DNA of 64,000 nt, from the NCBI GenBank assembly GCA_973895155.1, contig OZ316893.1, positions 13,842,359 through 13,906,358 on the forward strand, written 5' to 3'. Shown in pieces: positions 9,291 through 37,150 of this stretch. This DNA is from Marsupella aquatica. Taxonomy: Eukaryota > Plantae > Marchantiophyta. How positions within the stretch are numbered: position 1 is the stretch's first letter; every line of letters begins with the position of its first letter. The position numbers were made by a program, and so were the translations under genes. The notes under the pieces are model-generated. The model was given only the letters and a program-made list of their open reading frames with translations. It was not told the origin of the DNA and searched no databases.

Positions 9291-9533
9291 ACTCATCTCT
9301 CAATGAACCTTTTGTGCTAAACACTTACTTAGAGGCATCCTAGAAAATCATAACATTGAGAATGAATCTAAAATTGACAAATTTTTTCATTATAGTGGTG
9401 GACCTTGCCACCCAGCGCCCTCACCGATCCCAACACCCACACCCACACCCACACCTAAGTGTTCTTGGTGCCCAAACACCTCCACAAAACTTGTTGAGAA
9501 AGTAACTTGGTAACTTTTGCACCTCCAGCAGCC

Positions 9534-9892
9534 TGTCATGCCGAGGGATAGTACCTCTTATGCACATCGGCATGTCCCTCACATGCCCGCTAGGTATGTA
9601 GTTAGGGCTAGTGTACTACTTGAGTTAGCGACATGTTCTTATAGCAAATGCCAGGCGTTCTTGAAGCAAACGCGCTTGCTAGTGTGACGCCAGGACTTTG
9701 TTTACTTAGGGCATGTCTTTCTTTGTGGGTTTTTTTCAGTTCTTCTTGAATCGCCATTGACAAAGCTCAGACAGTGCTCGTCGGTTCCGTACACGGGATT
9801 CACACAGTGATTCGTTAGATGCTCCCAGCCGATCTTGGCATCCTGCCGGTTTTCGATTCGATTTCAGTACAATTGTTTCTCTTACGCCTTTT
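9534..9892 (+). repeat. Terminal repeat segment A (359 bp) of element A
   Basis: Homologous to 27921-28090 + 32843-32985 and to 37329-37684. Homology with 37329-37684 stops at ...TTACGCCTTTT. Confidence 0.9.
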
Positions 9893-9906
9893 ATTCAAGA
9901 AGAACT
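9893..9906 (+). promoter_or_regulatory. Putative self-priming primer-binding site
   Basis: ATTCAAGAAGAACT lies directly after segment A and is the exact reverse complement of 9738-9751 (AGTTCTTCTTGAAT). No TGG-type tRNA PBS at this position. Confidence 0.7.
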
Positions 9907-11546
9907 CTGATGAGGGGAAGAAGATCGGAGACGCTGTGCTTCTCAATTGCTCGAGACAATTGATATTTTTCCGTTGATGCCGGTGCAATTTCTATGGAAA
10001 AACGTTGAGCGATGGGGTGGAAGTTATGGCTTGTGTGTATACACTTAAGTATATACACTTAAGTCAAACAGGCCCCCCTCCCTCTTTTCCTTCGCGCTTT
10101 GCTTTCAGGGTTTTTCATTTTCTGGCCGCTGCCAACTGCTGCTTCAACGCCTGCCACGACCTTTTTCGGGCCATTTTTCGGTGTTCCCCGGACAATTTCC
10201 GTCGTGAGCTGTTCCCCGGCCGCGACCCCTTTTTCTTTACTCGGCAGCTGCCGTCGCGAGCTGCTTCCGGTCCGGCAGCTACTCTGCCTGTGTATACACA
10301 CATTCGGGGCCCATCAATGCCCCTGGGCCGTGCATAGGGCCGCGCGCGCTCCTTTCGCTCCGCCTTACGCACATAGGGCATCGTGCCCTGGTCTTAATAG
10401 GAGCTGTTGGCAGGAGGAGGAGCCGAGTACAAGGCAGCGCGAGGAGAGGAGGGGGCACGAGGCCCTATGCTGAATTAAAGAGGGAGGGGGAATTCAATTA
10501 GACTCCCTTCTCTTGGGAGTAGGTTCATCCGTGGCCAGGCAAGAGCGCAAGGAGAGGGCACGAAGCCCTATGAAGCATTAAAGGGGGGAGGGGAGGGGAG
10601 GGGAGGGGAGTATATACGACTCCTTCCCTCAGGAGTCCTTCTGCCAGGCACAGAGGCCCATGAAGCATTAAAGCAAGAGAGGAAGGGAAGTGAGTGTGCC
10701 AGAAGATCATTAAGAGGGCGGAGGGAATTTCCTTTTGGGAGCTCATAAGGAGGGGGAGGGGGCGCGAAGCCCTATGCAGGGCTCGAGCCCATTAAGAGGG
10801 GCCCATTTCTGCTCTTTCGCCTCTTCCTTTGCCACCCGACTGTCAGTGCCCGATTCTCCCTTTTTTGGCCATTTTCCACCTCTCGACATTTTCTTTCTCC
10901 GTGCCACCCGGCCTTGGTGTATACACATATGGGAGTGCATAGGGCCGTGTGCCGTCCCTACGACTCCCTTCGGCATTTTTCCGGTAGTGACCTCCATCGG
11001 GCCGCGACCTGCTTACGGCCAAGTTTTCCCCCCGGCCGCAACGACAACTCCAACAAAGGAGCTGCACGGATATTGGGCACCAGCCGGTGCATCTTATGTG
11101 TATACACATAAGGGAGGGACCCTTTCCACCGTTTTTGTTGTTTTTATTCCTTTTTTTAATTTTGACCCTTATAGGCAAGGCCAGTATACACATGGGGGCT
11201 AATTTCATTATGTTTAGCCCGGCCTCCTTGCCTCACCCCGTTTGCTTCATTGTGGGTTACATTTCCTAGCCTTGGGGTTGCCACACCTTTTTCTTGTCAG
11301 TTTCTTTCCCGTTGGCACCCCGGGTGAGCATGCAGCATGTCAGCAGAGGAACCAAGTCATAGCAGCACATCGCCACCGACACCTAGGTACCATTTACGGA
11401 GTGATCCACGACCATTGGTGCCAATTTCATTGGAGTCTCGGCAATTTCGATGACATCAACAGACAACAGCAGCACCCACACCACGCAACCCTTCTGCTAC
11501 ATTTGGCGGTCGCTTCACCACTACCCCAAAGCCTGTTATTGCTTCT

Positions 11547-13139
11547 TTGCCCTTTACTCCTTCTACATCAGTGGTTGTTCCAGCTTCTCCGACATACAGC
11601 ATGGACACCAGCCACTCATCTGGCCGCATTGAACGCTTCAGTGGGCGGTCAGGCACTGTTTCTTTGCGTGAGTTCAAATCCACTTTCTACACTGTCGTTT
11701 ACGAATTGGAGTTGAAGTACGGCAACAATTTCACAAATGCTTTTGCATTTAAGCAGCTAGCCAGGTATGTGCACCATGAGGCTTTGGATGTGTATGAGCA
11801 GCACTCTCAACGGCTGCTTGTTGTCACACAATTGCCTAACCCTGCCTATGCCAGTGCAATTGCGGCAGCATCACAATTGGCCTTACAGAATGCCATTGCA
11901 GCCCATGCTGCTGCTCCTGCCACTTCCCCTCCTACTCCAGTTCCTACCACTACGCCAGTTACTCCCACTATCTTGGCACACGCTACATCAGGCATTTCTC
12001 CCACCATTGATTCCCCTGCCTTTGCTAATCCAGTGGCTGAGTTTTTCCAGGTTCTTGAATTGGAATTCCCCATCAAGAGTGCTGACAAAATCATGCAGTT
12101 GGCCACCTTTGTGAGGCAGCGCGATGAAACCTTGAAGATGATGTATCGTCGGCTTCTCAAGCTGAAGGAGGACACCCAGAGCATCACTGACCTGGAAGTT
12201 TCTCATCGCTATCTTCGCGCATTGGAGGGCACACCAGCTCTCCATTCGCAAGTGTTGCAGCAAGTATTCTCAGAGTTTGGAGATAGCTACACCCTGCTCA
12301 ATGTCTATGACACTGCTGAGAAACTTGAGTTGGCCCATGCACATTATGAGGCCAGTATTGCGCGTCCACCGCGATCCAGGTACCAGGCTGCTGCTCCTAC
12401 AATGGCCACCCCTTCCCGTGTGCCACAGTATGCTTCCAAGACCAAACCAGCACATGCTGCTTTCATGCTGCCATCTTGCAACTACTGTGACAATCCTAAT
12501 CACAAGGCTAATGAATGTGATATTGTTGCTGAGGACCTGCCTTGTGATTTTTGCGGGCAAGTGGGCCACTTGGAGGCAGTTTGTTTTGCCAAATTCCCAG
12601 AGAGGAAGCAGCTACGACAACAGGCCACTCATCCTGCTCCTATTTCCACTCCCCCACCAGCTAGGAGGGCTCCTACTGCATCAATTGCTCCTCCTTCCAG
12701 TGGCAAAGCAACCAGTGCCAACAAATTGCCCAAGCAGCAACAGAAGCCACCAGCTCAGAAGGAGGCTCACAACGCACAGGCAACTCAACTCCAGTCTCTG
12801 ACTCATGAGGTTGAGTCCCTACGTGCCCAACTTGCCAACATCAAAGGCACGTCAACTGCCTCTGCTAGTCCTTCTCAACCGGTTGGTCACGTGCAACCCA
12901 TCCCTGGCCCAAGCACCACTGACAGTTCAGCACCTCTACCCCGCTCTTTCTATGGCTTGCCATTTGATGCTCATATGGGTGAGTGTGTGCTGTCCTCTGC
13001 TCCACAGCCTGGCCTTACAGCAAAATTTTCAGATTCATTTTGCCCTTCCTATTTTTCTTACCAGCAAGCCAGTGCGCCTCTCGTATTGCTCCCACACACC
13101 GCATTGTACAGGCTGATGGTCTTGCTGCCGGTCCTATGA
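11547..13139 (+). pseudogene. gag: Gag of element A (capsid-like region and two CCHC zinc knuckles); 3' end frameshifted
   Basis: IERFSG...LREFKSTF, QRDETLKMMYRRL, then CNYCDNPNHKANEC and CDFCGQVGHLEAVC. Likely start MDTSHSS at 11601. Confidence 0.85.
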
Positions 13140-13230
13140 CTAGAGCCAGGGGAGCTCGGGCTGTCTTGCCCCAATCTTTTCAGCCACTCACACTTGCTGA
13201 AGAGCGCACCTTGTTGGCGAGGGGGAGGGA

Positions 13231-14427
13231 GCTGCAGCTACATCCATTCCACCACCAGGTGCTGCTGACATTTCACAGAGAGTTATTTCTCCTGAGCTGC
13301 TTGAGCATGTCACCTCCGGTATGGCACAAAGGATTCTTACAACTCCACTTTTCAGTTGCCATGATATATAGCTGGATGCTAGAGCTGTCATCAGAGCGCT
13401 AGAGGGCTCACTGCATTCTTCATCAGCCCCTGTGACACCGGTTTTGGAGGTCCAATCTCATGTACATACTGGACCTTCTTCTTCTCCATTACATGCTTCC
13501 ACTGGTTTGGCTATCCCAGTACCAATTTCCAGTGGTAGAGATGACAGTATTGCTGCAGATTGTGTGACCAAAGCTACACTGGATTCTGGTCATGCTGCTC
13601 CATCTTTCCTGGCTATGCTGTTGAGTGGGCAGACCGTGGACACTAACTCCCTTCACAAGGTACCTCATCATTTGCCAAAAGTGGTGCCTAGTGACAGGAC
13701 TTTAGTTTCCACCACCATTGCCATTGTTGACAACATGAATTCAGCGGTCAAGTTGGAGGGTCACACTCCTCAGGTGGTCATGCTAGACATAGGCACTCAA
13801 CCAGTGATATTGGGCATTCAGTTTGCCAAGAAGATGGGACTACTGACTGATCACTTACAGCAATCCTGGTGGCACATTCGGACTGCTAGTGGCACTGTGG
13901 AGGACGTGTTGGGTGAGAGTTCTACTTTACTCACTCTCACTTTTAATGGAGGTATAGATCAGGAACTGCATTTCCCAGTCAGATGTTTGGTTACGTATGA
14001 TGTGCTCATTGGCCAGGAGGCTTTGTTCCCACCAGGTTTTACCAGTGACAACTGGCATGAGCATGCATACTACAGAGTTGATTGGCATACTGATGGCTCA
14101 CACTTGGGCTACATTCCCCTTGATTTGCATGGTGCCCATACACCTATGGCTCACCACTATGTGTTGAAAGCAGTGCACACAGCTACCTATGTCAACCACC
14201 CATTGCAGGATTGGATTGAGGAGGATGATGATGAGGTGGCTGCTGCACGTATAGCAGCACTTTCCATCAGCGTGGATCATCAACCAGAGGTGGTATTATG
14301 GCTCCAAGCAGCCCATGGACCTTTGGTGGCTGCATTACGCAAATTTGAGGACCTTGGGCAGCACAATGGACAACCGATAGCCCCAATCTTGAGCGCATCA
14401 GTTACATGGACTCCTCCTTCGGATGGC
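13231..14427 (+). pseudogene. Aspartic protease region of element A pol
   Basis: VVMLDIGTQPVILG (degenerate LD[T/S]G[A/S]) near 13780 and YDVLIGQEAL. Same frame as the downstream DNMT domain; one TAG near 13369. Confidence 0.75.
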
Positions 14428-15365
14428 CTTACATTGCTTGAGCTTTTTGGTGGCATTTCTATAGGCCTGGAAGCTCTCCTACAGTCTGGCATGGTGGTGA
14501 AGTAGTACATCTACGTGGACATTGATCCAGGTGCAAGGCACGTGGCTGAATCCCGTTTGCTAGAATTTTCAAAGCGATTTCCCCAGCAGTTTCCACATAG
14601 TGCATGGAAGTCTGCATTTTCTTTCTTCCCTCCAGATATCCAGCTTGTCCAGCACCGACACTTAACCCTTCTTGGCTCCCTTGATTTGATCATAGCTGGT
14701 TGGGAATGCCAAGGGTTTTCAGCTGCTGGTCACGGTGCTGGATTGCATGATTTTCGTTCTGGCCTTTTCACAGCATTGGTTCAGATTCTCACCTGGGCTC
14801 AATCCCTTTATCCTGCTGTTGGTTATATCATTGAGAATACTCCATCTCAGTTTGACCAGCGTCCACAGGTCAAAGAGGATTTCAGTGTGGTCCAGCACTA
14901 CTTGGGACCACCCCTTCTCATTGATGCAGTGCACTGTGGTTCTTATGCACATCATCTTTGTAACTTTTGGACTAACCTTGCACCACCTTCCTTGTTGGAG
15001 TTAGCTCTTCACCACACATCCAGGGACACTAACCTCATAGTGGACCAGATTTTGGATCCTAACAGTTCTTGCCAACCAATTACACGGCAAGAGCCAGCAC
15101 CTTGGTATCCAGCCAATACCATTGGACAGCCTCGTGCTACTTGGCCTACATTTGTGTCCTTTCCAGGTGCACATGCTTTTCAGGGTGATGGTCCTGGCCT
15201 AGTTTATCGACATTCTACCGGTACATGGGATGAACCTAGTCCTGAGGAGAGAGAGCGGGCTATGGGCTTCCAACCCGGTACTACAGGTCACACCAAAATC
15301 ACCAGGCTGGCCAGGAATGCTTTACTTGGCAGGGTAATGGATCTTCATGCTCTCACTTGGCTTCT
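14428..15365 (+). pseudogene. C5-cytosine DNA methyltransferase domain embedded in the retroelement pol
   Basis: Motif I LLELFGGI; motif II YVDID; motif IV DLIIAGWECQGFSAAG (Cys at 14707); RSGLF; motif VI YIIEN; motif VIII-like AHHLCNFWTNL; motif IX ERERAMGF; motif X LLGRVMD. One in-frame TAG at 14503. Confidence 0.9.
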
Positions 15366-17521
15366 GGTCACTTGCATCTTTTTCAGATGTACATTCATCC
15401 AGCATCAGGAGTTCCAGCCCTACCACTCCATGGTGCTGCTACATGGCATCCAGACCAGGTGCACTTACCTCTATTCAACACTCACCGCTTCAGTCCAAGT
15501 GTTGGGGGGGAGGAGGTCCCTTGTAATGTGGCTGACATTATTTCTGAGTTTCATGGTGTGGATCAGACCAGAGCAACAGATACAACAGGCCTTGGAGAGG
15601 CCTCATCACCTTATCAGCAGCATGCTAGCAGCTTGGGTGGAGAGGCTGGCACTTCTGGCTCTTCAAGCACGAGTACATCAGGTCCTATTCCTAGTGTTGC
15701 CAACTACACATTCATCATGGGCAACCACCTGAGTAAAAGACAGAAGGACCAGCTGCTGAATTTGCTCCTCAAGCATGAGAATGTGTTTGCTTTCTCTACG
15801 AAGGACTTGGGTAAGTGCAAGACTATGCAGTTCTCCATTGAGTTGGCTGATGAAACACCTATCTTTAGGCGGAGACACCGTTTGAGTAAGCATGAGTGGC
15901 AACTGGTGGATGAGAGGTGCCAAGAGCTCTATGAAGCTGGTCTTATTCAGCCATCTACATCAGATTGTGCAGCAGCTACAGTGATGCCAACAAAGAAGGA
16001 TTCTAGTGGATTGTGGATAGAGAAGCGCATGTGTGGGGACTACAGGCCACTGAACTTGGTCACACCCCAGGACAGGTACCCCATGCCACGGCCAGAGGAG
16101 CTATTTGACAGCATTGGAGACTCAGACATCTTCACTCTTGTGGATCTAAGGCAAGGCTTTAACCAGATTTTGCTGCTTGCAAAGGACCCCAAGAAAACAG
16201 CTTTCCATGGCAGTAACCAACTATGGGAGTGGTTGGTGATGCCATTTGGCTTGAAGAATGCGCCCATATTCTTTCAAAGAGTCATGGACCAGGTTCTTCA
16301 AGGTGCTGAGTTTCTGAAATGCTACATTGATGATGTGTTGGTCCACAACAAAGGATTTGACCAGCATCTACTTGACCTTGAGGAGCTATTCATGAGGCTT
16401 AAGAAGGTGAACCTAAAGATACACCCCAAGAAGTGTGAATTTGCTGTCAGATCAGTAGTATACCTTGGGCACCACATTCTTCCAAATGGAACCATGGCTC
16501 TCTGGGCCAAGGTGGTATCCATCTTGGAAATGCCCACTCCTACCGATGTTCACACTTTGAGGAGTTTTATTGGGTTGTGCAATTACTACCGGATCTACAT
16601 CAAAGATTTCAGCACCATTGCACACCCATTGTATGCTTTGTTGAAAAAGAATGTGACTTGGACATGGAGTACAGATGCTGAGGCAGCATTTGCCACTTTG
16701 AAGGAGAAGCTCTCAGAATACCCGGTGCTGAGAAGACCTGATTTCAGCAAGGTCTTTGTGCTACACACAAATTGGAGTGCCCTTGGGATTGGTGCCATTT
16801 TGGGCCAGCATGATGAGGAAGGTAAAGAGTACGTCATTGCCTATGCATCCAGGAGCAACAATCAGGCGGAGAGTCATTATTCTTCGTATAAGGGTGAATG
16901 CCTTGCTGTTGTGTGGGCTGTCATACATTACAGGCCCTACCTCTATGGGACCAGGTTTGCCCTCTACACCGACCACCAGCCCTTGAAGTGGTTGATGACC
17001 AACGACAAGCTTACTGGCAAGCTTGCTAGTTGGGCGCTCATACTCCAGGAGTATGATTTTGAGGTAATTCATAGGCCTGGTGTGACACATCAAAATGCTG
17101 ACACTATGTCCCGCAGCCCTTTGATTGCCTCTGATGATTCCTCAGATGCACGACAGGATTTTGACCAGGTTTCCATCCTGCCTACATTTCATGCATCTAC
17201 CTATCTTGCTTTGCTGCCATGCTACGTTGTTGACCAACTTGTGGTGGACATATGGGAGGACAACGACACTCTGAGATTTTTGCAGCATGGGGAGTACCCC
17301 ATACATGTTACTGCTGCCCAGAGAGACCAAATTCAGCAAAGGTCCAAGCGTTACTTGTGGAAGGGAGATAATCTCGTGCGCTACTTGCCAGACAGGGAAG
17401 TGGTGGTTCCACCCATTCATGAGAGGGTTGGCCTTATCCGTAAGGTACATTCTGAGCTTGGTCATTTTGGCGTTAAGAGGACTTACAGCCTCTTGGTCCC
17501 TCATTATCATTGGAGAGGCAT
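15357..17521 (+). pseudogene. pol: RT, RNase H and integrase N-terminal zinc-binding region of element A
   Basis: RMCGDYRPLN, DLRQGFNQI, VMPFGLKNAP, YIDDVL, YLGH; RNase H VLHTNWS...ECLAVVWA...YTDHQPL; HSELGHFG. Cut at WRG|MHG by element B. A 1-bp deletion near 15378 separates it from the DNMT frame; copy 2 (ORF 33705-33896, LVTCILFQMYIHP) is in frame there. Confidence 0.93.
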
Positions 17522-20500
17522 TGTGATGCCTAGACAGGAATCACTCGGCCGGTTAAGTGGGTAAAGCAGGAAGGCACCCTAGGAACACCTTAGTATAGTG
17601 ACAAAACAAGGAAAATATAAACAATTAGGGGCAACCATGGAACCCGGGCAGAGGCCGGAGGTAAGGCTGAGGGTGAAAACCCGATTAGGGTTAGGGCGCG
17701 TTAAGCGTCGGCGGCTAGGAAGGATCAACGGGAAGAAGGACCGGCAGAGGAGAGGGGTAAGGAGCGCTTGCAGGAGATGGTGGCTCATTTGCGAGCACGA
17801 ACTAGGCAGACGACTACGGGAGGCCAACTACTGTCAGCTGCTTAGGCAAGCACTCGGGGAGAGAGTAGATACCGACGATCAACCTAAGGAGGGTATGAGC
17901 AACGTCAATCAAGCGGCACATTTCTGGGGATGCCTGTTCGAATGGGCAACTGAGTACATCAAGACTTACGAGGACGAGGAGTCAGAAAGGGCAGCTCGAG
18001 AACGGCAGGAGCTCGCTCGATTGTGGGAGCTGCAGAAGACGGCTTTCTTAGGAGGCAAACTCATCAAGGACGAGTTCCTGTGGACGCCTACTTCCAATCA
18101 ACTCGACGATCTTCTGTTTTGCAAAGACAGCGTCGTCGGCATCCGAGAGGCCATCAAGAACTGCAACGACATACACTGGGAATTAAAGGGTAGCACGGAA
18201 AGGTGGACCCGGGCAACGGTGCTAGGAGAAACCTCCACGGCAGCAGAGATGAAGAGGAAGGGAGCCGTCAACGATGAAGCCACCCCGGCAAAAAGAACGA
18301 GGTCGGCGGCACCAAAGAAGCCAGCCGAGCAGCAGAGCAGGAGGCAGGGAGAAGCCGAAGAGGAGGAGGTCGATCCCATCAAGGCCATTCCAACCAAGGA
18401 TGACACCTGGAAGGGCTGGGCGGCAACCCTACCGGTGGAGGTGCAACTACATTTTGCACGGGAGGAGGATGCATGCTTTACGGCCATGCAGACCAAGAAG
18501 TACCAAGGCTTCATGGCCGGATCCGGCTTGGAGGCCTTTGTAAGATTACCATGGCTGAAGCCGGAGGTACCGGAGTCAGACCTATTAGAATTCGTGGGGT
18601 CATGGGAACCCGAGACCAATTGCACGAGGATATATGGGAAGGATTTCTATCTTACTCCCAAGGTGATTGCCGAAGTGTTTGGCTTGCCGATGGGCAATAA
18701 GACCAAAGTTGATACCAGGAAGACCTTGCCTGACAAGGAGTTCCGGTCGTTCCCCGGGCCATCAACGAAGAATGGCTTCTTCCGGAACACCTGCACCAAC
18801 CCGCACATAGGAGAGATGATCGACTTCTTGCGGGTGACCATGCATTGTAACTTGCCGAGGGCAGAGATCGGCAAGGCACAGGTCTATCTGGCAGAAAGGC
18901 CAGACCCAAGCCGGGACTACAACGGGTACCTCCTCAACCAATTGAAGAAGATCTTAAAGGAGGAGCAGCAGGTAATCGGCATGGGGAGCGTGTCGCGGCT
19001 TGGCTATCACATACCGCTGTTGTGCCGGTATGCCAGAGGTCAGACTTTTGCCCCGGTACTTCCCCTGCAGGTAAGGGCACCCGAGGAAGCTCCAACGCCG
19101 AGGCCGTTGGCTGAGAAGCCTCAACCACCTGTTAGTCCTACGATCGAGCAGGTGTTTAGGCCCAGGAAGGAAGACTTGCCGATGCAGCAACCAGGCATGC
19201 AGAGTCTGCTGAAACTACTGGAGAAAGAAAAGAAATCGGCATCGGCAACAACAACGGCAACGGCAACAATGCAGGACACTACTACAGAGGTAGGCCTACA
19301 CCGGCTCACAAGAGAAAACCCCTTTGCTGGAGACAAGGAGAGAATCAGGCCGGAATCCAAGCCAGGTATTCGAATGTACGTGGGAACCTCAAGCTCCGAA
19401 TCTGAGGCAGAATTGCCTGAAGCTCCTACCGACGAAGAGGAGAGGGAGAAGCCGGAAATCCAAGAGGTAGAGGAGGCAGTGGAGGACTGCAGCCATGATA
19501 ATTCCGGCTATGGGTCGGACCATCACGTTCCAGGAGTAAGGACCTGTGGCCGGTTTGTCCCCACACTTCCAAGGGTAGTGCGAGGGGACCCCAACCAGCA
19601 GAGTAGCCCTGAGTCTCCCCCACCAGATGTTGCTCCCCCGAGCTTCGACGGCATAAAACAGACGGTGCAGGAATTTCAGGAGCGAATCAAGCAGGAGGAA
19701 GAGGCCGCCCTGGCTAAGGAAAAGGATTTACCAGGAGGAGATTGGCCGGAGGACATCAGGCGGCTAGCCGAAAAAGGAAGCAAACCTCTAGCCACGATTG
19801 AAGAGATCCGCAGGACGGCTTGGGAGCAGAGGCCACGATGGGCGATGCCGATCACTTCTACTTACTCCACCTACGCTAAGAATAGAGCCATGGAGTATGG
19901 TGAGATGTGTGGGGAACTTGCGCTCGGCATCTTTGGAGAGGAGTTGGAGGTAGGACCCTTTTTTCATAGGGAGCAGTTGGAGAAGCACCAATTAGAAGAA
20001 GCGGTGGCTTTAGAGAGAAGCAAGAAGGACGAGGTCATTCGGCGGCTTAGGAGGATGGAAGCCGAGATTGAAGATCTAAGGGCGGCCAAGAAAGCCCAAG
20101 ATGAACTGCGGATTAAACGACATGAGCTGAACATCATGCAGGGGCAGTTGGACGCCGCGCAGGCTGATAATCAGAATATCAAGGATAAACTGACTCAGAC
20201 ACAGGAAGAGTTGGCCGACACGATCAAAGAAAGGGAAAAGTGGAAGCAAGAGCTGAAGAATACAGAGGAGGCCCACATAACAGCCAACAGCCGGGCCATG
20301 GCGGAGACCCAAAGAAAGGAGTGGGCGTTGAAAGGGGAGCTCGAGAAAATCCGCGGAGCCCTTGAGCAGAAGGAGGTCGAGTTAGGGAAATCCTATCAAG
20401 GGATTATGGCGCTGCAGCAGGAGCTTGCGTCCCTGACGGCCAGCTTCAAGGCCGACCTAAGGGAGAAGGACGAGATGCTCGAACAGACTTACGCCAAGAT

Positions 20501-22157
20501 GAACCAGATGGAGTCTGTCATCATTGCAGAGCTCGACAAGGAGCTAAGAGCAACCCAGGAGGAGAAGGCTACCTTGAAGAAGGAATTGGAGGAAGCCCAC
20601 AGGGAGCAGGAGGAGGCCAAAAACGAGCTGGAGGGGGCACGTAAGGACCTGGATGAAACCCAAGAGGAGTTGGAGGAAATCACGAGGAAGATGGAGAACC
20701 TACAGCGGCGGGCCGACAACCAAACAGAGCGGCTGAAGAAACAAGCCGCAGTATTTAAATGCTTAGCTGCAGCAGGTCCATCTCCTGTTGGGACAAACCA
20801 GTTACCAGGGGTGGTAATTGCCGAAGGACAAGCCGCGCCACCTGCACCAGTGCCGGAGGTAAGTGGGAAGGGGAAGGGACCAGCTGCCGAGCCACCAACG
20901 AAGAAGAAGCGGAAACCTTCAGGGTCAAGGAGTAATACGACTTCACAGGCCGTGGTGATCAAGGAGGTAGACCTAGCACCGACCCCAGACAGGGTCACGG
21001 CTAAGGATCCAACTCCCCTAGGGGAAGGGGAAGCCGAAGCCGTGGGAGTGGCTGAGGCCGAAGCCGTGGGTATTGCCGAGGCCGGTGTCGAGGCTGAAGC
21101 CGAAGGTGGACCCAGTCAGGCCGATGGAGAGTTGACTCGGTCAAGGGCAGGTAATCTGTCAGTAGGCGGGCCAACGGCAGTGGCTGAGGAGGAAGTATTG
21201 GGGGCATCCATTGAGGATCCACCACCGGTGTCGTGACGGTGCAAGGGCGCCGTTCCTTTTAGGGAGGGCGGACGTGGAGGGAGGAGGCGTGAGTGGGCAG
21301 GGCGGGCACGGATCTCCACGTTTAGGATTAGGATCAGAACCAAGAGCGGCCCTGACACTTAGCTTAGTGGGATTGCGGTCCCACTGGTAGGAGCAACACT
21401 TGTGCTCCTGCCTTGCTGTACATAGGTAGATTCGGGCAAGTAGATTACTGTTAAGTAGATTAGGCTTACGATGCAAAGAAGGGCGGATCCACTACCAGGA
21501 TAAGTACCTGGGCAGCGGGGAGCTCAGGGCCTCTTCTTTAGCAAGTTTTTAGTTTGCACCAGCCGGGCTGGGATCAAGTAGTACGAGAAGCTCTCGGTTA
21601 GTCATACAGTGACCCTTGTGTATATTCATGTTTCCTCATGCCTAAGAGCTGAATAGAGTTGGCCTCACGGCTTAGTTCGCAGAACTTGTGTATGAGATGT
21701 ACTGTTTGTATGGCAAGTGCATGGTATGACTCAGTCATAATGAGTCATTTTGCTATTTGTGTGTCGCATTAACTTGTGTGAAGAGTGCCCACATCAACAG
21801 AAGGAAGGAAAGTAAGCAGGGGAGTGAGAGTTGGATGTGTCGAGCTGAGAGAGGTCTTAGCGGCTTAACCAAGCCTATTGGGGATCATTCCGGCGGCGGA
21901 ATCCAAACATACCTAACAAGACGGAGGGGAAGACAGGGGAAGACAGGGGAAGGCCTATATTAGGCCGGCTACGTATCTCATGACCCGATGAAGGATCTGT
22001 CCAGTATATGTGTGTAAAATGTTAATAGTAGTAGTAGAAGGTTAGCAGCGTCCCATGCCGCTAAGCCGCGGAAACGGCCTCGCCAAGCACGAAACCTGCG
22101 GGAATCGGCTTGAGCTGGGGGGTTTCTTGGGTTTAGGGAGCCATGGGACGCACCACA
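17522..22157 (+). mobile_element. Element B copy 1: 4636-bp TG..CA unit with a single large ORF (giant solo LTR or LTR-less passenger)
   Basis: Ends TGTGATGC...GCACCACA; 5-bp TSD GGCAT (17517-17521 / 22158-22162). The empty site is visible in copy 2 of element A (TGGAGAGGCAGGCATGGCC, ~36183). Confidence 0.92.
17637..21236 (+). CDS. ~1200-aa protein: region resembling plant retrotransposon accessory (PMD/Transposase_32-like) domains, acidic linker, long coiled coil
   Basis: Uninterrupted ORF. ATG-GAA-CC (MEP) start is conserved in copy 2 (40790, minus). Motif LLEFVGSW...IYGKDFYLTPKVIAEVFGLP; E/K/Q-rich heptads ~20000-20740. The domain assignment is a resemblance only. Confidence 0.8.
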   Translation: MEPGQRPEVRLRVKTRLGLGRVKRRRLGRINGKKDRQRRGVRSACRRWWLICEHELGRRLREANYCQLLRQALGERVDTDDQPKEGMSNVNQAAHFWGCLFEWATEYIKTYEDEESERAARERQELARLWELQKTAFLGGKLIKDEFLWTPTSNQLDDLLFCKDSVVGIREAIKNCNDIHWELKGSTERWTRATVLGETSTAAEMKRKGAVNDEATPAKRTRSAAPKKPAEQQSRRQGEAEEEEVDPIKAIPTKDDTWKGWAATLPVEVQLHFAREEDACFTAMQTKKYQGFMAGSGLEAFVRLPWLKPEVPESDLLEFVGSWEPETNCTRIYGKDFYLTPKVIAEVFGLPMGNKTKVDTRKTLPDKEFRSFPGPSTKNGFFRNTCTNPHIGEMIDFLRVTMHCNLPRAEIGKAQVYLAERPDPSRDYNGYLLNQLKKILKEEQQVIGMGSVSRLGYHIPLLCRYARGQTFAPVLPLQVRAPEEAPTPRPLAEKPQPPVSPTIEQVFRPRKEDLPMQQPGMQSLLKLLEKEKKSASATTTATATMQDTTTEVGLHRLTRENPFAGDKERIRPESKPGIRMYVGTSSSESEAELPEAPTDEEEREKPEIQEVEEAVEDCSHDNSGYGSDHHVPGVRTCGRFVPTLPRVVRGDPNQQSSPESPPPDVAPPSFDGIKQTVQEFQERIKQEEEAALAKEKDLPGGDWPEDIRRLAEKGSKPLATIEEIRRTAWEQRPRWAMPITSTYSTYAKNRAMEYGEMCGELALGIFGEELEVGPFFHREQLEKHQLEEAVALERSKKDEVIRRLRRMEAEIEDLRAAKKAQDELRIKRHELNIMQGQLDAAQADNQNIKDKLTQTQEELADTIKEREKWKQELKNTEEAHITANSRAMAETQRKEWALKGELEKIRGALEQKEVELGKSYQGIMALQQELASLTASFKADLREKDEMLEQTYAKMNQMESVIIAELDKELRATQEEKATLKKELEEAHREQEEAKNELEGARKDLDETQEELEEITRKMENLQRRADNQTERLKKQAAVFKCLAAAGPSPVGTNQLPGVVIAEGQAAPPAPVPEVSGKGKGPAAEPPTKKKRKPSGSRSNTTSQAVVIKEVDLAPTPDRVTAKDPTPLGEGEAEAVGVAEAEAVGIAEAGVEAEAEGGPSQADGELTRSRAGNLSVGGPTAVAEEEVLGASIEDPPPVS

Positions 22158-22162
22158 GGCAT

Positions 22163-23335
22163 GCATGGCCAGGTTCGAGATGTTATTGCCCGGTGTAAAC
22201 AGTGTGATAGGGTGAGGACTTCTTTCACATCTCGGCAACCCACATTCATCCACTCCCTATTCAGGGCATGTTTTATTGCTGGTCATGTGATTTGGCTGGA
22301 GAATTACCCCTCACGTCTCGGGGTAATCTCTACATCATGATCATGATAGAGCATTTCTCCAAGTGGATAGAACTTGTGGCATTGCCGGATAAGACCTCCT
22401 GTAGCACCAGCCAGGCATTCCTGCAACAAGTTCTCAGTCGCTTTGGAGTTTGTGCAGAATGTCTCACTGACCAGGGCTCAGAGTTTAGAGGAGAGTTCCA
22501 AGAGCTGCTTGATCAGGCCCTCATTGATCATCGTCGGACATCACGAGATCACCCACAAGCAGATGGCTTGGCAGAGCGCATGGTTCAGACATGCAAGAAG
22601 GGTCTCCGGAAGATTTGCCTCACCAAAAACAAGGAGGATTGGGACCTGGCCTTACCCTACATTGCCATGGGGTATAGGATGTCCAGACATGCATCACTGT
22701 CTAACTTTTCTCCCTACTTCTTGTTGTTTGGTCGTCACCCAGTTCCACCTTCTGCTATTGCTGCTCACATGCTTCAGGTGGTAGACTTGGATTCAGCTGT
22801 GACTTGGTCTGATGTGATCTCTGAGAGGGCTGCCCTATTCAGGAGGGTTATGCCCATGGCCATGGAGAATTTGGCCATTGCACAACACAGGGACACACTG
22901 CGTTATGCACACACACGAGGGGGCACTTTTCAGCCGAAGGTCAGGAGGTTTGATGTGGGAGATTTTGTGTACTTGCAGCGGCAAGCTAACAACACCCTGG
23001 ACACCTCTACCAGTCGTACTATTCTCAGGGTTAAAGCTATTCGACCGTCTGGAGTGCTAGAGTTACAAGGGGCAGATGGGCGCATAATTGCTGACAATGC
23101 CAAGAATTGCGCCCCTTGTCATCTGCCTAACCTGGATCCCACCATTGTGACTTCTACTTGGATTCCACCTATGGACTACCCTTGCAAAGTGTGTTTGCGA
23201 ATTGATGATGCTGACCAGATGCTGCTGTGTGACAATTGCAATGGAGGGTACCATCTTTTCTGCCTTCGGCCTGAACTTACCCAGATGCCAGAAGGGTTAT
23301 GGTTTTGCCCTTCCTGTGCTCCACGTGCTACCTGA
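22163..23335 (+). pseudogene. Integrase core and C-terminal PHD finger of element A
   Basis: CKQC, WSCDLAG, IEHFSKWIE, LTDQGSEF, DGLAERMVQT, FSPYFLLFGR. C4HC3 PHD CKVC..MLLCDNCNGGYHLFCL..WFCPSC at 23183-23317. Frameshift near 22245. Confidence 0.92.
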
Positions 23336-23367
23336 ATTTTCTTCAGCCCTCCTTTTGGCTGTGGTCT

Positions 23368-23550
23368 GGGGGGGATACATAGGTTTACACCTCCACTACG
23401 TACATACCACTTCATTTGCTTTTTCTTGGCACTTGTGAATGTGATTGGACTTTTTCTATGCATGTTGGTTGCTAGCAGCTTGCACATATGCCTTGCCGGT
23501 GACTTATATGTTTTCGATACACTATGGCTACGATACTATATGTCACGACA
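23368..23550 (+). repeat. G7 PPT-like tract (23368-23374) and terminal segment B (23375-23550)
   Basis: Segment B is homologous to 37151-37326 and 37685-37861 and ends TGTCACGACA. Confidence 0.85.
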
Positions 23551-26500: not shown

Positions 26501-28414
26501 TGCATGGATTGTCTAATGTGGAGATATATATGACTCAGCTTCCAAATTTTATTGACGAGAAGACTAGACACTTGGTGTGTCAACTTTTGCATTTGTAATA
26601 TATGGTTTGAAGTAGAGTCCCCCAAAGTGTAATGTGTTCCGTCCCATTGTCCTCTAAACCCAAAAACCTTCCTAAACAAGTCGATTCCTACCGGTTTTGG
26701 TCTTGCCAAGGCCAATTCCACTACTTATTGGCATGGGATGTTGCTAACTTCTTACCCACATATACTGGACAGTTCCTTCATTGGGTCATGAGGTATGTTG
26801 CCGGCCTACTCTATGCCTCTCCTATTCTTCCCTTCCTGGTCGTTCGTCACGTATATTTGGATTTTGCCCCCGGAATGATGCCCAATTGGCTTGGGTAGGC
26901 GCTAAGCCCTCTCTCAGCTCGACACATCCAACTCTTACTGCTTCTTAGTTACAACTTTTCTTACCCCCTTTCTCTCCTATAGTTGGTGTGGGAAATCTTC
27001 ACACAAGTTGATGCGACACACAAATAGAAAGATGACTGTTACTGATTAAGTTATACTTGACGCACATCCATAAAATCAGTACTTCTCATACACAAGACCT
27101 GCAAACTAAGCCGATAGGCCAACTCTATTCAGCTCAAGAGTGTGAGGAAACATGAATATACGCAAGGCTCACTATATAACTCATTGAGAGCTTCATTTAC
27201 TAAATGATCCCAGCCTTTGCTGGTGCACTAAAAATTTGTTAAGAAAAAAGCCCTGAACTCCCTGCTGTGCAGGTATTTATCTTGGCAGCGCACCTACTAT
27301 TTCCTTGCAGCATAAGTCTAATCTATTCTAACTATACTCTACCTATATACAGCGGGGCAAGAGCACAAGTGTTGCTCTTACCAACGGATCCGCAATATAT
27401 CCTACTAATCTAAGTGTAAGGGCCGCCTCTTGGCCCCGATCATAATCCTAAATCTGGAGGTTTGCGCCTACCTTGCCCACTCATGCCTCCTTCCTCCATG
27501 TCCGCCCTCCCTAAAAGGGATGGCCCTCCACCACCGTCATGGCAGCGATGGCTCATCCCCAATGAACGCCCCCAATCCTCCCTCTGTGGCCAATGTCATA
27601 GGTCCATCCTCTAACAGATTACCTGCTCTTGACCGGGTCAACCCCGCATGTTCTCGGCGTTCTTTGGTCCACCCCCGGCCTCAGCCTTGTCTTTGGCTTC
27701 CGTTGCCACCATGGCCTACAAAAGTGGTGGGACTGTTATTGAGGCATCGGCACTAGTAGTCCCAACATCCCCCTCCTTGCCATAGCAGTATTCCTCATAG
27801 GCTTGTCCTACGAGGCGGGTTGTCTCCTCTTCCCAAGGTTGCGTTTAATGCCTATCAACAATTGGCATCCTTGTGTCAACTCCCGTCATGGCCACTCCTA
27901 GTTGGTCTTCTTGACCGACTTGTGATGTCGAGGGACATTGCCTCCTATGCACATTGGCATATCCTTCTCATGCTTGCTAGGTATGTAGTTAGGGCCACTG
28001 CTTGATTAAGCGACATATTCTTATAGCAAATTCAAGACATTCTTGAAGCAAACGCGCTTGTTAGTGTGACATTGGGATTTTGCTTACTTAGAGCACTCCC
28101 ACCCGGCCCCGCCAAATTGACGCGGCATTGTCAAAAGTAGCCAGCCAAATGAGACTCGGCGTTCCAGCCTTAAGACCCGCCCCGGTCACATACCCCACCG
28201 CTGCACCAAAATTCTTGCACCAAACACTCACGTAGTTCGAACTGGGCGAGCTTGAGTTAAAACCGCACATTGAGAAATGAGTGATTCAAAACTTGGTCAC
28301 AATGTTGATTTGAAACACGACAACCATCAAATGTCATAGTTTGTGCGGGCTTCATCTCAGTTCTTTTGCTTGTCATCACCAATCTTTTCAAGAGTGTCGA
28401 GCCCAAGCAATGCC

Positions 28415-29755
28415 ATGACCTCGCACCAAGATTGGCGTGTAAAATTTCAGAAGCAGATACAAGATGAATTGGCAGAACTTGAAGTAGAGCAAAAATTGTG
28501 GGAAGATACAACAATCAATGGACCACTGAATCTGATGGACTGGTACAATCGGCACAAGGTATGTGTGCATGGTGGATCAAGGCCAGGGAAATCACCTAAC
28601 ATTGATCGTGACTCGGAGGTAGGGCACAAACGTATATGGGATGACTATTTTTGAGTCAATCCTATTTACACAGATGCTCACTTTAGGTGTCGATTTAGAA
28701 TGAGAAGGCACATGTTTTGGAAGATTCATAATGCTATCTGTGAACACGATGAATATTTCATCCAAAAGCGAGATGTTGCTGGAAAATTGGGTCTTTCTTC
28801 AATTCAGAATATTACTGCTGCTCTTCGGCAGCTTTCACTCGGGGTTTCTGTTGATGCCATGGACGAGTACTATTGAATTGCAGAAACTACTGCATTGGAC
28901 TCTCTAAAGAATTTTTGTAGGGCCATACGTGAGGTGTTTGAGGCACATTATCTCAGACAACCCACCAAATCTAACTTGGAGAGACAATTCTTGATCAATG
29001 AAGCCAGAGGATTCCCTGGAATGTTTGGCTCTTTAGATTGTATGCACTACAGATGAAAAAATTGCCCTGTTGCCTGGCAAGGCCTTTTCGCAAACAAAGA
29101 CAGGGAGAAATCAATTGTCCTAGAAGCAATAGCAGATTAGTCATTGTGGTTTTGGCATGCATATTTTGGACTTCCTGGATGCAACGACGACCTTAATGTA
29201 CTGGACAGATCACCCTTGGTGAACAATATGCTCAGGAGTGAAGCACATAACTGCAAATTCAAAGTCAATGGAGTAGAGTATAATAGATACTACCTCCTCA
29301 CAAATGGGATCTATCCAGAATGGTCAATTTTTGTTAAAACTATTGCGCTGCCACAAGGAGAGGCCAGGAAGTGGTTTGCAAAATGTCAGGAATGAGCAAG
29401 GAAGGATGTCGAGAGAGCATTTGGAGTTCTTCAAGCGAGATTTGCAATTATTCAAAATCCTGCACGAATTCATTCTAGTGCTGTGATCAAAGACATATGC
29501 ATAGCATGTGTTATTTTACATAACATGATTGTTGAGGACAAAGGAGACGAAAAGCTGCCTCAAGATTGGGACCAAAGGCCAGGGGCAAGGAGCCATGGAA
29601 GCCTACTTCCGACTTCTGACTGGAAACAATATATGGCAGCCACTCGAACAATCCATGATTCAGAGACACATTACATGCTACGAAATGATTTAGTTGAGCA
29701 CTTGTGGAATCTGAAAGGCGAAGGTCATAGATTTGATTATGTCAGTCAAGTTTAG
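28415..29755 (+). pseudogene. PIF/Harbinger DDE transposase (HARBI1/ALP1-like) with several stops
   Basis: FRCRFRM, GMFGSLDCMH, WHAYFGLPGCNDDLNVLDRSP, YYLLTNGIYPEW, RKDVERAFGVLQARF, ACVILHNMIVED, LRNDLVEHLW. Confidence 0.92.
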
Positions 29756-30884
29756 AAACTAGGCCCAAGACAGACATGTACGAATGTGTTAAAACTTGTA
29801 TTGAAACTTGCACCATTTGTGCTCCTTCATTCAAATTGACTGCCTACAAAAGTGGCATTGTGTACAACCCTACCTCTCTAAATAAAATAAAATTCCTGCT
29901 TGTAACTTACACAATGCTGAACAAAGTCGGGGCTAGAGGTCAAAGCCAAGCTGTAAAATTGGCAATTCCACTTGACTAAAACTATCCCAGAGTGCCTGAA
30001 AATCTTTGCTCACTGTAGAGCTTGTGTAAATACACAAAAGTGGCATTATGGATTACTCAATCCTTTGGCCACTTCCACACATATCCACCATACCGTCACC
30101 CATCATCCGAATCCCCTTCATCTTCCTTATGTTCCTCCCGAGCTATTTCTCTCTGTCATTGCTTCCCATCGCTTGTATCTTTGCTCTGCATGTTCACGTC
30201 TAGCAGCCTCCTCGGTCGAGAGTTGCTCCGAAATTGACGCCCTCCACTGCTTCCTGACCTCTTCCTCATGACTGATCCAGGATGAGGGCTGTGGAACTAC
30301 GATTGCTGGTGCAGGATTAGGTCTTGTTGGACCAGCTCCAGTACGCACTCCCTCACAAGGTTTCAATACAGGAAGTGAAAGGTTTGAATGATCGGCAGCA
30401 GCCTCATCAGCAAGGCCAGGCACGGAAGATCCTCTCGCACTCTCCGTTGCTTGAATGCTTCCCTAAACTCTGCAAAGTGATGGTAATGAAATAAAGCAAA
30501 GCTTGACAAGGTAGTAGACAAAGCTTTCACGAGATCGATGAAATGAGGCAATAACAAAGTGCGAGCAAACACCTGCAGCCAAGGTCTTGTAGAGATTCTG
30601 TGAGGGTCGGGGCTGATGTTGTATGTAGGCGTTTTTGTACTATAGGAGAAGATTTTGAGAAGGTCCCTGTCTCTCCTTTCGTGGTCTATCGCTGGTTCAC
30701 GGTTTGCAAGGGCTCTCAATGTACTCAACACGGGAGAAATGAAAGAATGGACGCAGTGTCATTTATTACTTAAATCCGTTCATGAGAGCACACACATGCT
30801 TCTCATTATTAATACATAGCAGAGGAGTCCTCTGTACAAATTAAGAAATCTCCACTAGGAATAAAAGATGAAACTCTGCCTCAA

Positions 30885-31312
30885 GAGTAAAGTAACATCG
30901 TCAGTTATCAGTTCTTTCCATCAGTCGACCTGATATCAGTTGTCACATCATCTCAGAGAGGCCACCAAGATGCGGCGCCAAAAAAAATGCAAATTTTAAA
31001 AAATAAAATTCTCAAAATTTGATGAATAAAAAAAAAATGAAATTTTTTTCACTATGGGTGTTCGTACCGTACGGACATCGCTTCTTGGCGGGGACACCAA
31101 ATTTCCACAATTTTTTTTTCTATTTTTCTTTGTTTTGAAATTTTCAAGAAAATAATTTTAAAAAAAAAATTTCCCATTTTTTTTGTCCGCTCGCCAATCT
31201 CGGCGAGGTCAGCTGAGATGCATGGAAATGCAAAGTCGTCATCTCAGTTGCTCAGCTAAGATTCCAAAAAATTTCTGCGGAAAAATTGATAACTGATGAT
31301 CCTCGCTACCCC
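30885..31312. mobile_element. Mutator-like MITE inside the Harbinger
   Basis: 9-bp TSD CTGCCTCAA (30876-30884 / 31313-31321). G-initiated imperfect TIRs containing ATCRTCAGTTATCA. Confidence 0.75.
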
Positions 31313-31377
31313 CTGCCTCAAAAAGAAAACAAATCTTCTTTTATAGACTCCAAAACTATTGCAAAACCCAATTCACA

Positions 31378-32440
31378 CTACGCCAGGTCTTTGTACACAT
31401 GTGGTCTCCTATTGGGATCAAAGCCTCCTGTACAACTTGTATCAACACCTACAAAATGAAGGGCTTGTGGAATCATTGTAGGAGGTGTGTGCATAGGTCC
31501 AATTGGCTCCTGGCCAGGCACCTCAACTGGAATTGACACCTCCACAGGCGCTGGTGCACTTTGAAAAGCTATGGTTGGAGTATGTGTGGCGCCCTGAATA
31601 TCTGTCGACTCCTTTTCATATGCAACCTTGAATTTCTGAAGCTCCCGAGCTCTCCATTGCTTGAATTCCTGTCTGTAATCATCATCCACTTCTGCTGCCC
31701 TCATGGTGAACAAATTGTGAATGCTCTGATCCTGGAGTAGCTTCAAACATTTTGAATTGGTGAATGCCATATCCCTTTGGGCGTAAGCTGCAATCCGAAA
31801 AGCAAACTCCTCACTCTTCAGCTTTTTGGCAGCCTTGTTGCCCATGGGTCGTCCATTGCTGCTAAATTCCCCAGCAACACTATTATCACAATCATTTGGG
31901 TTTATGATTTCTGTAGGAAAATAGGGGGTGGGGGGTACATTCTCCTTGTCTGTAGGCGATGCCTTCCCCTTATCTGCTACAAAGCCCTTTCCTTTTGCCT
32001 TCTTGCCCTTTTGTTTATCTGCCATGTCTTCTATAGAATGGGAGAAACGTGGGCAATCTTTCAACAAGTACCAGCAGTCCATGAAAGAAAAATCCTTCCC
32101 CTTTGGATGTTGTGCCTGATAATGCTCTCTTGCCTTCTGCAAAGTATCTTCCTGATTGGAACCAGAAAGCCTCAGATCTTCTAGATTGGCATACAAACCC
32201 AAAAACTTTGCAATGTCATGCTTCAAATCTCCCCATTTGCTCTCGAGTGATCTTGAGCCTCTCTCTTGGGTACCTCTCGGCCTGTGTTGATTGTAGTGGC
32301 CAGCGACACGATCCCAAAAAGCTTGATTTTTTTGCCCTGCCCCCACAATAGGATCCTATCCTATGTTCACCCACGACATACACAATTGTTTAAACTCTCC
32401 AGACAAAAGTTTTTTGCCCGCGCGCACTATTCGTTGCCAT
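31378..32440 (-). pseudogene. Harbinger Myb/SANT-like DNA-binding protein (NAM-associated type)
   Basis: LCMSWVNIG*DPIVGAGQKNQAFWDRV...SLESKW...F.FMDCWYLLKDCPRF...RPMGNKAAK. Stop and frameshift in the 5' part. Confidence 0.85.
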
Positions 32441-35411: not shown

Positions 35412-35686
35412 CTTGGGGGGTTGACTATCAAAATCTTAAGAACCGCGTGCAATCCAAAAAAGATATTTTTGATAGAAATTAACTAAAAAGCGTAGGAGGC
35501 AAAAGAAGGTCTTATAAACTCATGTTTATAGAATATTCTCTAATATGTATCTTTTGTAAAGTAAAATAGGTTATTAATATTGAAAATAGAGAATATTCTT
35601 GGATTTTTTTTATAAAATAGGTCTATTTATATTAGGCTAAGATCGCACATGGTACCCCAAAACATATACTTAGTTAACCCCCCGAG
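35412..35686. mobile_element. 275-bp MITE with 8-bp TSD (hAT-like) in the RNase H of element A copy 2
   Basis: TIR CTYGGGGGGTTRACTA; TSD TAGCAAGC / TGGCAAGC. The empty site ACTGGCAAGCTTGC is in copy 1 (~17013). Confidence 0.88.
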
Positions 35687-37150
35687 TGGCAAGCTTGCTC
35701 GTTGGGCGCTCATAGTCCAGGAGTATGACTTTGAGGTAATTCATAGGCCTGGTGTGACACATCAGAATATTGACACTATGTCCCGTAGCCCTTTGATTAC
35801 CTCTAATGATTCTCCAAATGCACGGCAGGATTTTAGCTAGGTTTCCATCCTACCTACATTTCATGCATCTACCTATCTTGCTTTGCTACCATGCTATGTT
35901 GTTGACCAACCAGTGGTGGACATGTGGAAGAACATCGACACTATGAGATTTCTTCAGCATGGGGAGTACCCCACACATGTAACTATAGCCTAGAGAGACC
36001 GCATTCAACAAAGGCCGAAGCGTTACTTGTGGAAGGGAGATCATCTTGTGTGTTGTTTGTCAGATAGGGAAGTGGTGGTTCAACCCATTCATGAGAGGAT
36101 TGGCCTTATTTGTAAGGCACATTCCGAGCTTGGTCATTTTGGCGTTAAGAGGACTTACAACCTCTTGGTCCCCCATTATCATTGGAGAGGCAGGCATGGC
36201 CAGGTTCAGGATGTTATTGCCCAGTGTGAACAATGTGATAGGATGAGGACTTCTTTCACATCTCGGCAATCCACACTTCATCCACTAGGCATGTTTTATT
36301 GCTGGCCCCTTACATCTTGAGGTAATCTCTACATTATGACCATGATAGAGTATTTCTCCAAGTGGATAGAACTTATGGCATTGCCGGATAAGACCTCTCA
36401 TAGCACCAGCCAGACATTCCTTCAACAAGTTCTCAGCCGCTTTGGAGCTTGTGCAGAACGTCTCATTGACCAGCGATCAGAGTTTAGAGGGGAATTCCAG
36501 GAGTTGCTTGGTCAGGCCCTCATTGATCATCATCGGATGTCACGAGATCACCCACAAGTAGATGGCTTGGCAGAGCGCATGGTTTAGACATGCAAGAAGA
36601 GGGTTGCTCTATTCAGAAGGGTTATGCTCCTGGCCATGGAGAATTTGGCCATTGCACAACACAGGGACACACTGCGTTATGCACACACACACGAGGGGAC
36701 AGTTTTCAACCCAAGGTCAAGAAGTTTGAAGTGGGAGATTTTGTGTACTTGCAGCAGCAAGCCAACAATACCCTGGACACCTCTATTAGTCGTACTATTC
36801 TCAGGGTTAAGGCTATTTGACCGTCTGGAGTGCTAGAGTTACAATGAGCAGATGGGCGCACAATTGCTGACAATGCCAAGAACTACGACCCTTGCCATCT
36901 GCCTAACTTGAATCCCACCATTGTGACTTCTACCTAGATTTCACTTATGGACTACCCGTGCAAAGTGTGTTTGCAAATTGACAATGCTAACCAGATGCTA
37001 CTATATGACAATTGCAATGGAGGGTACCATCTTTTTTTCCTTTGGCATGAACTTACCCAAGTGCTAGAGGGGTTATGGTTTTGCCCTTCGTGTGCTCCCA
37101 GTATTACCTGAATTTTCTTTAGCCCTCCTTTTGGCTGTGGTTTGGGGGGG

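Follow-up and report, generated by a model that had tools for sequence, protein, structure and literature searches.

A Ty3/gypsy retrotransposon whose polyprotein includes a DNMT3-type methyltransferase: likely cDNA methylation and likely integration through a palindrome inside the LTR

Two decayed copies of the element

The window (the whole stretch of DNA analysed, 64,000 nucleotides) holds two copies of a Ty3/gypsy retrotransposon, both decayed, whose Gag-Pol polyprotein contains a methyltransferase of DNMT3 type; both copies and all of their parts lie on the plus strand. Copy 1 (9534..23550) is a complete A-internal-B form with the termini TGTC..GACA and the target site duplication (TSD) AGCC at 9530-9533 and 23551-23554. 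Repeat A1 (9534..9894; 84% identity to 37328-37686), which probably comprises distal U3, R and U5, is followed by gag with a zinc knuckle (11601..13231; frameshifts near 13050 and 13230-13300), an aspartic protease (PR) with a spacer (13672..14412) in the same frame as the methyltransferase (DNMT; 14413..15387), and a region of Ty3/gypsy type encoding a linker, reverse transcriptase (RT), RNase H (RH) and an integrase zinc finger (15378..17521; Pfam matches, with Ty3 RT as the top PDB match, E 2e-67). The integrase (IN) core (rve, DDE) and a C-terminal PHD finger of BAZ/KDM5-PHD1 type occupy 22158..23335. The protease match to PF13975 was weak (E 0.007), and stronger in the relative P0124 (E 4e-5). 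The PHD finger resembles those of WSTF, BAZ2B, KDM5-PHD1 and ATXR5, which are readers of unmethylated H3 tails. A G-run polypurine tract (PPT, 23368..23374; the same in related loci) adjoins repeat B (23375..23550), probably proximal U3, which ends in the putative att half-site GACA. The PR-RT-RH-IN order, Ty3-like RT, DDE integrase, TG..CA ends and TSD are those of Ty3/gypsy elements; two full terminal LTRs were not found, the element ends being A and B.

Copy 2 (27921..37861; flanks GACT/AACT) has the form A-internal-B-A-B and is internally deleted. It is devoid of gag, protease and methyltransferase motifs I-II, resumes at the equivalent of position 14626 and contains several frameshifts; its DNMT remnant, frameshifted and running from motif III onward (32986..33760), is 91% identical to copy 1. 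The original prediction that both copies carry the domain as a family feature was right about the family, copy 2 contributing only this remnant, and the segment 33705-33896, thought to join DNMT in frame with RT, spans only the last DNMT helix to the linker. At the 3' end, repeat B1 (37151..37326) meets repeat A2 (37329..37686) at a near-palindrome, GACA-GC-TATC (37323..37332), a predicted internal att site, and repeat B2 (37687..37861) lies head-to-tail with A2 at a predicted end-to-end junction of cDNA.

The methyltransferase of copy 1 is damaged by a stop (14503-14505) and a frameshift near 15378, and neither of its two motif VIII arginine positions is arginine; the copy is also frameshifted between gag and protease, and its integrase is split by a 4.6-kb insertion. 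The motif VIII arginines were lacking in both window copies. In four related runs of near-identical DNA nearly all depth differs from the window at both of these codons, so the changes are decay in the two window copies, as also fits a divergence dominated by transitions (48 of the 69 mismatches between copies 1 and 2). Judged from their reading frames and residues, the enzymes of both copies are dead.

The insertion splitting the integrase (17522..22157, plus strand) is unrelated and has TG..CA ends and a 5-bp TSD (GGCAT). It has no internal LTR pair and carries one 1217-aa coiled-coil ORF with no Pfam match above cut-off, and is either a solo LTR containing a large ORF or a non-autonomous element that lacks LTRs. 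A second copy lies at about 26640-40905 (minus strand), and the nesting is reciprocal: the 4.6-kb element sits inside copy 1, and copy 2 sits inside the second copy of the 4.6-kb element. A1 of copy 2 is itself interrupted by a PIF/Harbinger-type DNA transposon (about 28091-32840) with Plant_tran/DDE_Tnp_4 and NAM-associated ORFs and short TIRs. Elsewhere in the window were seen a 260-bp repeat, possibly a MITE, with 85% identical copies at 1-265 and 35434-35687 (the latter within the RNase H of copy 2), a tandem repeat of four 70-87-bp units just 5' of copy 1 (8800-9110), a decayed stretch that is Copia-like by eye (25700-26620) and a zf-RVT LINE-type fragment (62402-63124).

The methyltransferase domain and its relatives

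Read with X at the single stop, 14413-15387 (plus strand) translates as a C5 cytosine methyltransferase in frame with the upstream aspartic protease. As predicted originally, its motifs stand in canonical order in the protease frame: I (FGGIS, 14446-14460), II (14518-14526), IV (GWECQ, 14698-14712), VI (EN, 14833-14838), VIII (14950-14964), IX (15247-15267) and X (from 15325), named after the standard motifs of C5 methyltransferases and by the alignment with DNMT3A. The unpermuted order of motifs I-X means that the domain is not a DRM. Its match to the profile PF00145 (E 4.3e-6, 26.8 bits, cut-off 22) bore out the prediction, and its best PDB sequence matches were to DNMT3A (E 1e-4). A structure model built on 26 sequences (pLDDT 91.5, pTM 0.91) had DNMT3A/3B as its best matches when folds were searched (E 4e-16, TM 0.72/0.82, about 20% identity), and the sequence and fold matches together put the domain closer to DNMT3 than to DNMT1, DNMT2 or bacterial enzymes.

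The search for relatives produced 226 near-length proteins and 71 + 78 longer ones, as well as 638 clusters at 50% identity (E up to 1e-30). Named sources were Calypogeia fissa (66% identity to the window), Sphagnum (56-65%), Marchantia polymorpha (a cluster of 18 members that carry the annotation hypothetical protein), Closterium, Klebsormidium nitens, Chlamydomonas eustigma, Chromochloris and Monoraphidium; the Sphagnum, Calypogeia and Marchantia members substantiate the predicted occurrence of the family in land plants. Matches on viral contigs were 13 in number and weak, and covered general methylase motifs only. One relative, P0037, which is annotated as coming from a MAG of 'Candidatus Obscuribacterales', falls among Marchantia-type elements and probably represents plant DNA that was binned with bacteria.

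The catalytic Cys and Glu were present in all of 152 full-length diverse natural domains, and the motif VIII arginines in 150 and 148 of the 152. Motif IV, usually Pro-Cys in C5 methyltransferases, is G-W-E-C in 92 of the 152, which counts against the methylating role proposed below. A second set consisted of 80 metagenome loci, the best 80 of 456, picked by motif patterns (median 79% to a Sphagnum protein); as these loci were found by the patterns, their counts for motifs IV and IX are biased, and the 152-protein set was relied on instead. Median dN/dS between copy 1 and 79 of the loci (L018 dropped) was 0.118 for DNMT, 0.070 for RT, 0.171 for PR and 0.130 for gag, with dS near saturation and loci that are not independent. 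The value for DNMT indicates purifying selection and agrees with the earlier claim that the domain is a feature of the family.

Natural relatives demonstrate the fusion of PR, DNMT and RT in a single frame: P0123 is DNMT-RT-RH in one frame, P0237 (DNMT 76% identical) is gag-PR-DNMT-RT, and P0375 is a whole polyprotein from gag to PHD (2358 aa). In a rough tally among the loci, PR and DNMT shared a frame in 55/77, DNMT and RT in 41/68, and gag and PR in 23/55. Three layouts were found among the relatives, namely PR-DNMT-RT in one frame, gag-PR-DNMT with DNMT closing the frame (Marchantia group), and RT-RH-DNMT-IN-PHD, the last in each of the six named chlorophyte proteins over the part that it covers. 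DNMT thus follows the protease in streptophytes and RNase H in chlorophytes. Some chlorophyte-type members (P0164, P0173, P0379, P0381) additionally have a G-patch domain. Related DNMT domains also stand beside a Copia-type RT (PF07727; P0402 and P0397) or RNase H PF00075 (P0186); these settings and that of P0401 are possible transfers to other retroelement classes or gene-model fusions.

Trees were built with FastTree and midpoint-rooted with no outgroup. Post-protease DNMT domains form one clade (43/153, SH-like support 0.984), to which the window belongs together with K. nitens P0277 and every named streptophyte of the tree; within it the window falls in a subclade (support 1.0) with Calypogeia and moss-like sequences. 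The window is about equally distant from the named Calypogeia and Sphagnum proteins, and its host is probably of bryophyte grade. The doubtful exception is P0137, whose label as a pre-RT type came from a partial match and was rejected, since it groups with the post-RH set in the DNMT tree. RTs of post-protease elements group likewise (13/89, support 0.965). KnitGypsy-Dnmt3, as described in the available text of de Mendoza 2018 (PMC5890265), is a Gypsy element whose Pol includes Dnmt3 and whose repeats are DIRS-like, and is regarded there as acquired in the K. nitens lineage. P0277 (KFL_013780020; PR then DNMT; 35% identical, E 1e-53), presumably a copy of KnitGypsy-Dnmt3, lies in the same DNMT clade as the window, which places the window element in that lineage and not in a separate capture. 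That the domain is a DNMT3-type C5-methyltransferase and belongs to the KnitGypsy-Dnmt3 lineage is, jointly, close to certain.

Split repeats, insertion ends and predicted primer

Repeats and ends were analysed in the window and one moss-like clade. Gene order in the related loci was kept where covered, bar a few internal deletions and one duplication. After merging of identical flanks, the integrated elements fell into two forms, A-int-B-A-B (n = 15, B2 truncated in two) and A-int-B (n = 7), both ending TGTC..GACA with 4-bp TSDs; the tallies leave out L021 and L029, in which B is broken by a microsatellite. Among the 13 distinct insertions for which both ends are available, the TSD was exact in nine, had one mismatch in three and was absent in one; those of the window copies were exact (AGCC) and with one mismatch (GACT/AACT). 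The opposite polarity, A-B-A-int-B, did not occur, none of 28 distinct left ends being preceded by B.

The PBS adjoins A1 and the PPT adjoins B1, and reverse transcription should therefore define an LTR of B+A; the integrated ends sit at the B|A boundary and not at the LTR ends defined by PBS and PPT. The two junctions of the longer form differ in character. B1|A2 is the palindrome GACA-GC-TGTC or a C>T/G>A derivative of it in 14 of 15 distinct insertions, and at position 37330, where the window departs from it, nearly all depth of the four related runs has the palindromic letter. A2|B2 was precise in 8 of the 15 insertions, short by 2-3 bp in four, left with no more than the final 30 or 6 bp of B in two, and in the remaining one extended by 135 bp from upstream of the PPT; such raggedness is as expected of fresh end-joining. 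The arrangement suggests that the split repeats are permuted LTRs, a description absent from the literature searched.

The PBS (9893..9906), directly 3' of A1, is a 14-nt perfect complement of 9738..9751, an initiator-like pyrimidine-AGTT site predicted to be the RNA 5' end and self-primer. In the related loci (duplicates unmerged) 11-12 of 12 bases pair in 19/35 and at least 10 in 25/35, with two compensatory changes separating the window from moss-like loci and a third in L014. When 9738-9930 was folded, primer and PBS paired in both the MFE and the centroid structure; overall z was 0.62, and stability is therefore no evidence. The complementarity is a putative signature of Tf1-type self-priming, the priming itself being deduced from it. 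According to the available text of Neumann 2019, self-priming in plants has been predicted only for Tcn1 and TAR.

Proposed life cycle and relation to known systems

Taken as a whole, we consider it likely that the polyprotein-borne DNMT methylates new cDNA and that insertion proceeds through a cut in a palindrome within the element's LTR. The gag-PR-DNMT-RT-RH-IN-PHD polyprotein, made as one chain as natural relatives show, would be packaged and processed, and DNMT, made with Gag and Pol, would thereby reach the cDNA in the particle. The RNA 5' end, for which pairing and covariation were seen, would pair with the PBS and prime the minus strand in the manner of Tf1. Before or at integration, the packaged enzyme would add 5mC to the cDNA, probably at CG, a role that we favour by a small measure. 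Methylation of cDNA was proposed earlier for DIRS elements, and a Klebsormidium Dnmt3 domain gave no methylation in yeast, a result its authors themselves call inconclusive (PMC5890265, available text). In the window CpG observed/expected was 0.19-0.37 in coding regions against 0.42-0.47 in background and 0.68 in the nested element; in nine related loci the coding region (0.28-0.40) was not below the flanks (0.14-0.54), and CpG depletion was dropped as a sign of self-methylation. Less likely, though to be taken seriously, is that the enzyme has another substrate, either the integrated copy or its target chromatin, which would amount to self-limiting silencing, or that its main part is to bind DNA within the integration complex. 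The place of the chlorophyte DNMT between RNase H and integrase would suit that reading, and insertion-site chromatin and host benefit are among the options in the text of de Mendoza 2018 (PMC5890265); against it, the streptophyte DNMT lies after the protease, away from integrase, and near-invariant catalytic residues favour catalysis over binding alone.

Integration at an internal att site is, from the repeat structure, quite likely. Reverse transcription would give B-A-int-B-A, with ends that, from the PBS and PPT positions, are not TG..CA. Within GACA-GC-TGTC of the 5' LTR, integrase would cut after each CA in a staggered way, so that 3'-CA ends with 5' overhangs of 2 nt remain, as in ordinary processed ends, for insertion with a 4-bp TSD; the PHD finger would read unmethylated H3 tails and steer insertion. 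The true cDNA ends would be linked by host end-joining, either before integration (2-LTR circle) or after strand transfer, to give A-int-B-A-B, which is the only form able to supply R since it alone has a second, downstream A. Dead-end A-int-B forms would come from one-LTR circles, double cutting or B1-B2 recombination. Against the model, a symmetric circle would have two att sites, yet only the 5' att appears to be used, and the fixed polarity (0/28) is unaccounted for.

That polarity would be explained if B2 were instead copied from read-through RNA, as proposed for PAT/Ngaro, so that A2|B2 is inherited, the cDNA is already permuted and A-int-B arises only by later B1-B2 recombination. The 8/15 precise A2|B2 junctions fit as well, and PAT elements are characterised by split direct repeats (PMC3266345, available text). 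This reading seems rather improbable to us, as 7/15 junctions vary by deletion or PPT-upstream extension while the terminal att end survives, PBS and PPT adjoin A and B as in an ordinary LTR of B+A, TSDs are present and no tyrosine recombinase is among the Pfam matches of the element. That DNMT is a captured host gene fragment, a neutral passenger in a local family, as the broken state of both window copies might suggest, is scarcely credible and is refuted by the conservation data: dN/dS of about 0.12, 638 clusters at 50% identity (E up to 1e-30), the grouping of post-protease elements in both the DNMT and RT trees, and motif VIII changes missing from nearly all depth of the four related runs.

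More tentatively, and with real room for doubt, integration through the internal palindrome may extend to an ancient green-plant-wide clade of DDE-integrase elements that abandoned end-directed integration, with an att palindrome encoded in U3, host-joined cDNA ends, permuted insertion and a DNMT3 kept since the chlorophyte-streptophyte split and shifted within Pol. In the boldest extension, DNMT would mark the CpG beside att on the first-made LTR duplex, so that the LTRs would be hemimethylated on opposite strands and integrase told which palindrome to cut. In the textbook, integrase acts on the ends of linear cDNA, a rule from which the route suggested by the end structure departs. LTR finders would miss or mis-bound such elements, and counts of DNMT3 in the gene sets of bryophytes and algae can be raised by them. 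In Marchantia, a model plant for which methylation mutants exist, gag-PR-DNMT frames that look unbroken are annotated as hypothetical genes, which makes the role of a retrotransposon methylase testable.

The window element shares with KnitGypsy-Dnmt3 the Gypsy domains, an unpermuted Dnmt3 in Pol, purifying selection (Ka/Ks below 0.2) and DIRS-like repeats (PMC5890265, available text). The combination originally suggested as perhaps undescribed is accordingly not new as a whole, since a Gypsy carrying Dnmt3 in Pol together with DIRS-like repeats was already reported from Klebsormidium. The PHD integrase, split repeats and predicted self-priming named at the outset were themselves supported in the window element. 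The available text of de Mendoza 2018 (PMC5890265) mentions no TSD, att palindrome, two-form pattern or self-priming, and PHD is absent from its three text supplements. Whereas KnitGypsy-Dnmt3 was reported as a one-lineage acquisition, relatives of the window element span bryophytes, Closterium and chlorophytes, turning a one-alga curiosity into an old, widespread and barely studied lineage. The available texts of Sarre 2025 (PMC12344493) and a preprint (10.64898/2026.05.21.726589) cite DNMT elements as streptophyte, without bryophyte or chlorophyte members, which their supplements may include. The openly accessible papers searched contained no account of the land-plant/chlorophyte range or of the internal-att model, and the range Sphagnum, Calypogeia, Marchantia, Closterium and chlorophytes appears new relative to the one-alga report.

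In its A1..B1-A2-B2 layout the element resembles PAT/Ngaro, which, as described, have a tyrosine recombinase and DIRS-type integration without TSDs; the window element has a DDE integrase, TG..CA ends and 4-bp TSDs, and the plus-strand ORFs scanned gave no Pfam match to a tyrosine recombinase, with rve integrase instead. Predicted self-priming is shared with Tf1/Sushi and the plant Tcn1 chromoviruses (Neumann 2019, available text). Unlike these, the window element has no chromodomain match, carrying PHD, DNMT and permuted repeats instead; in the available text of the Neumann 2019 survey, PHD, methyltransferase and Marchantia are mentioned nowhere. A Chlamydomonas Gypsy element with PHD and unequal LTRs was described by Craig et al.; the Chlamydomonas PHD-bearing Gypsy-7a_cRei and REM1 resemble the window element in a PHD finger in Gag-Pol and in unequal LTRs, the left being without the last 8 bp of the right. 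Gypsy-7a_cRei has no DNMT among its listed domains. Troyka, with CG..CG ends and a 3-bp TSD, was considered as a match and does not fit.

For the proposed cut itself, an analogous cutting of a palindromic junction of abutted ends is that of IS3/IS911 circle junctions. Cleavage of retroviral 2-LTR circles, in which an rve-type DDE enzyme cuts such a junction, is likewise similar, and a palindromic 2-LTR junction is a substrate of HIV-1 integrase in vitro (PMC1905944, available text). The retroviral and IS3 junctions are made from cDNA or element ends, whereas the palindrome of the window element is encoded in U3 and its real end junction is sloppy.
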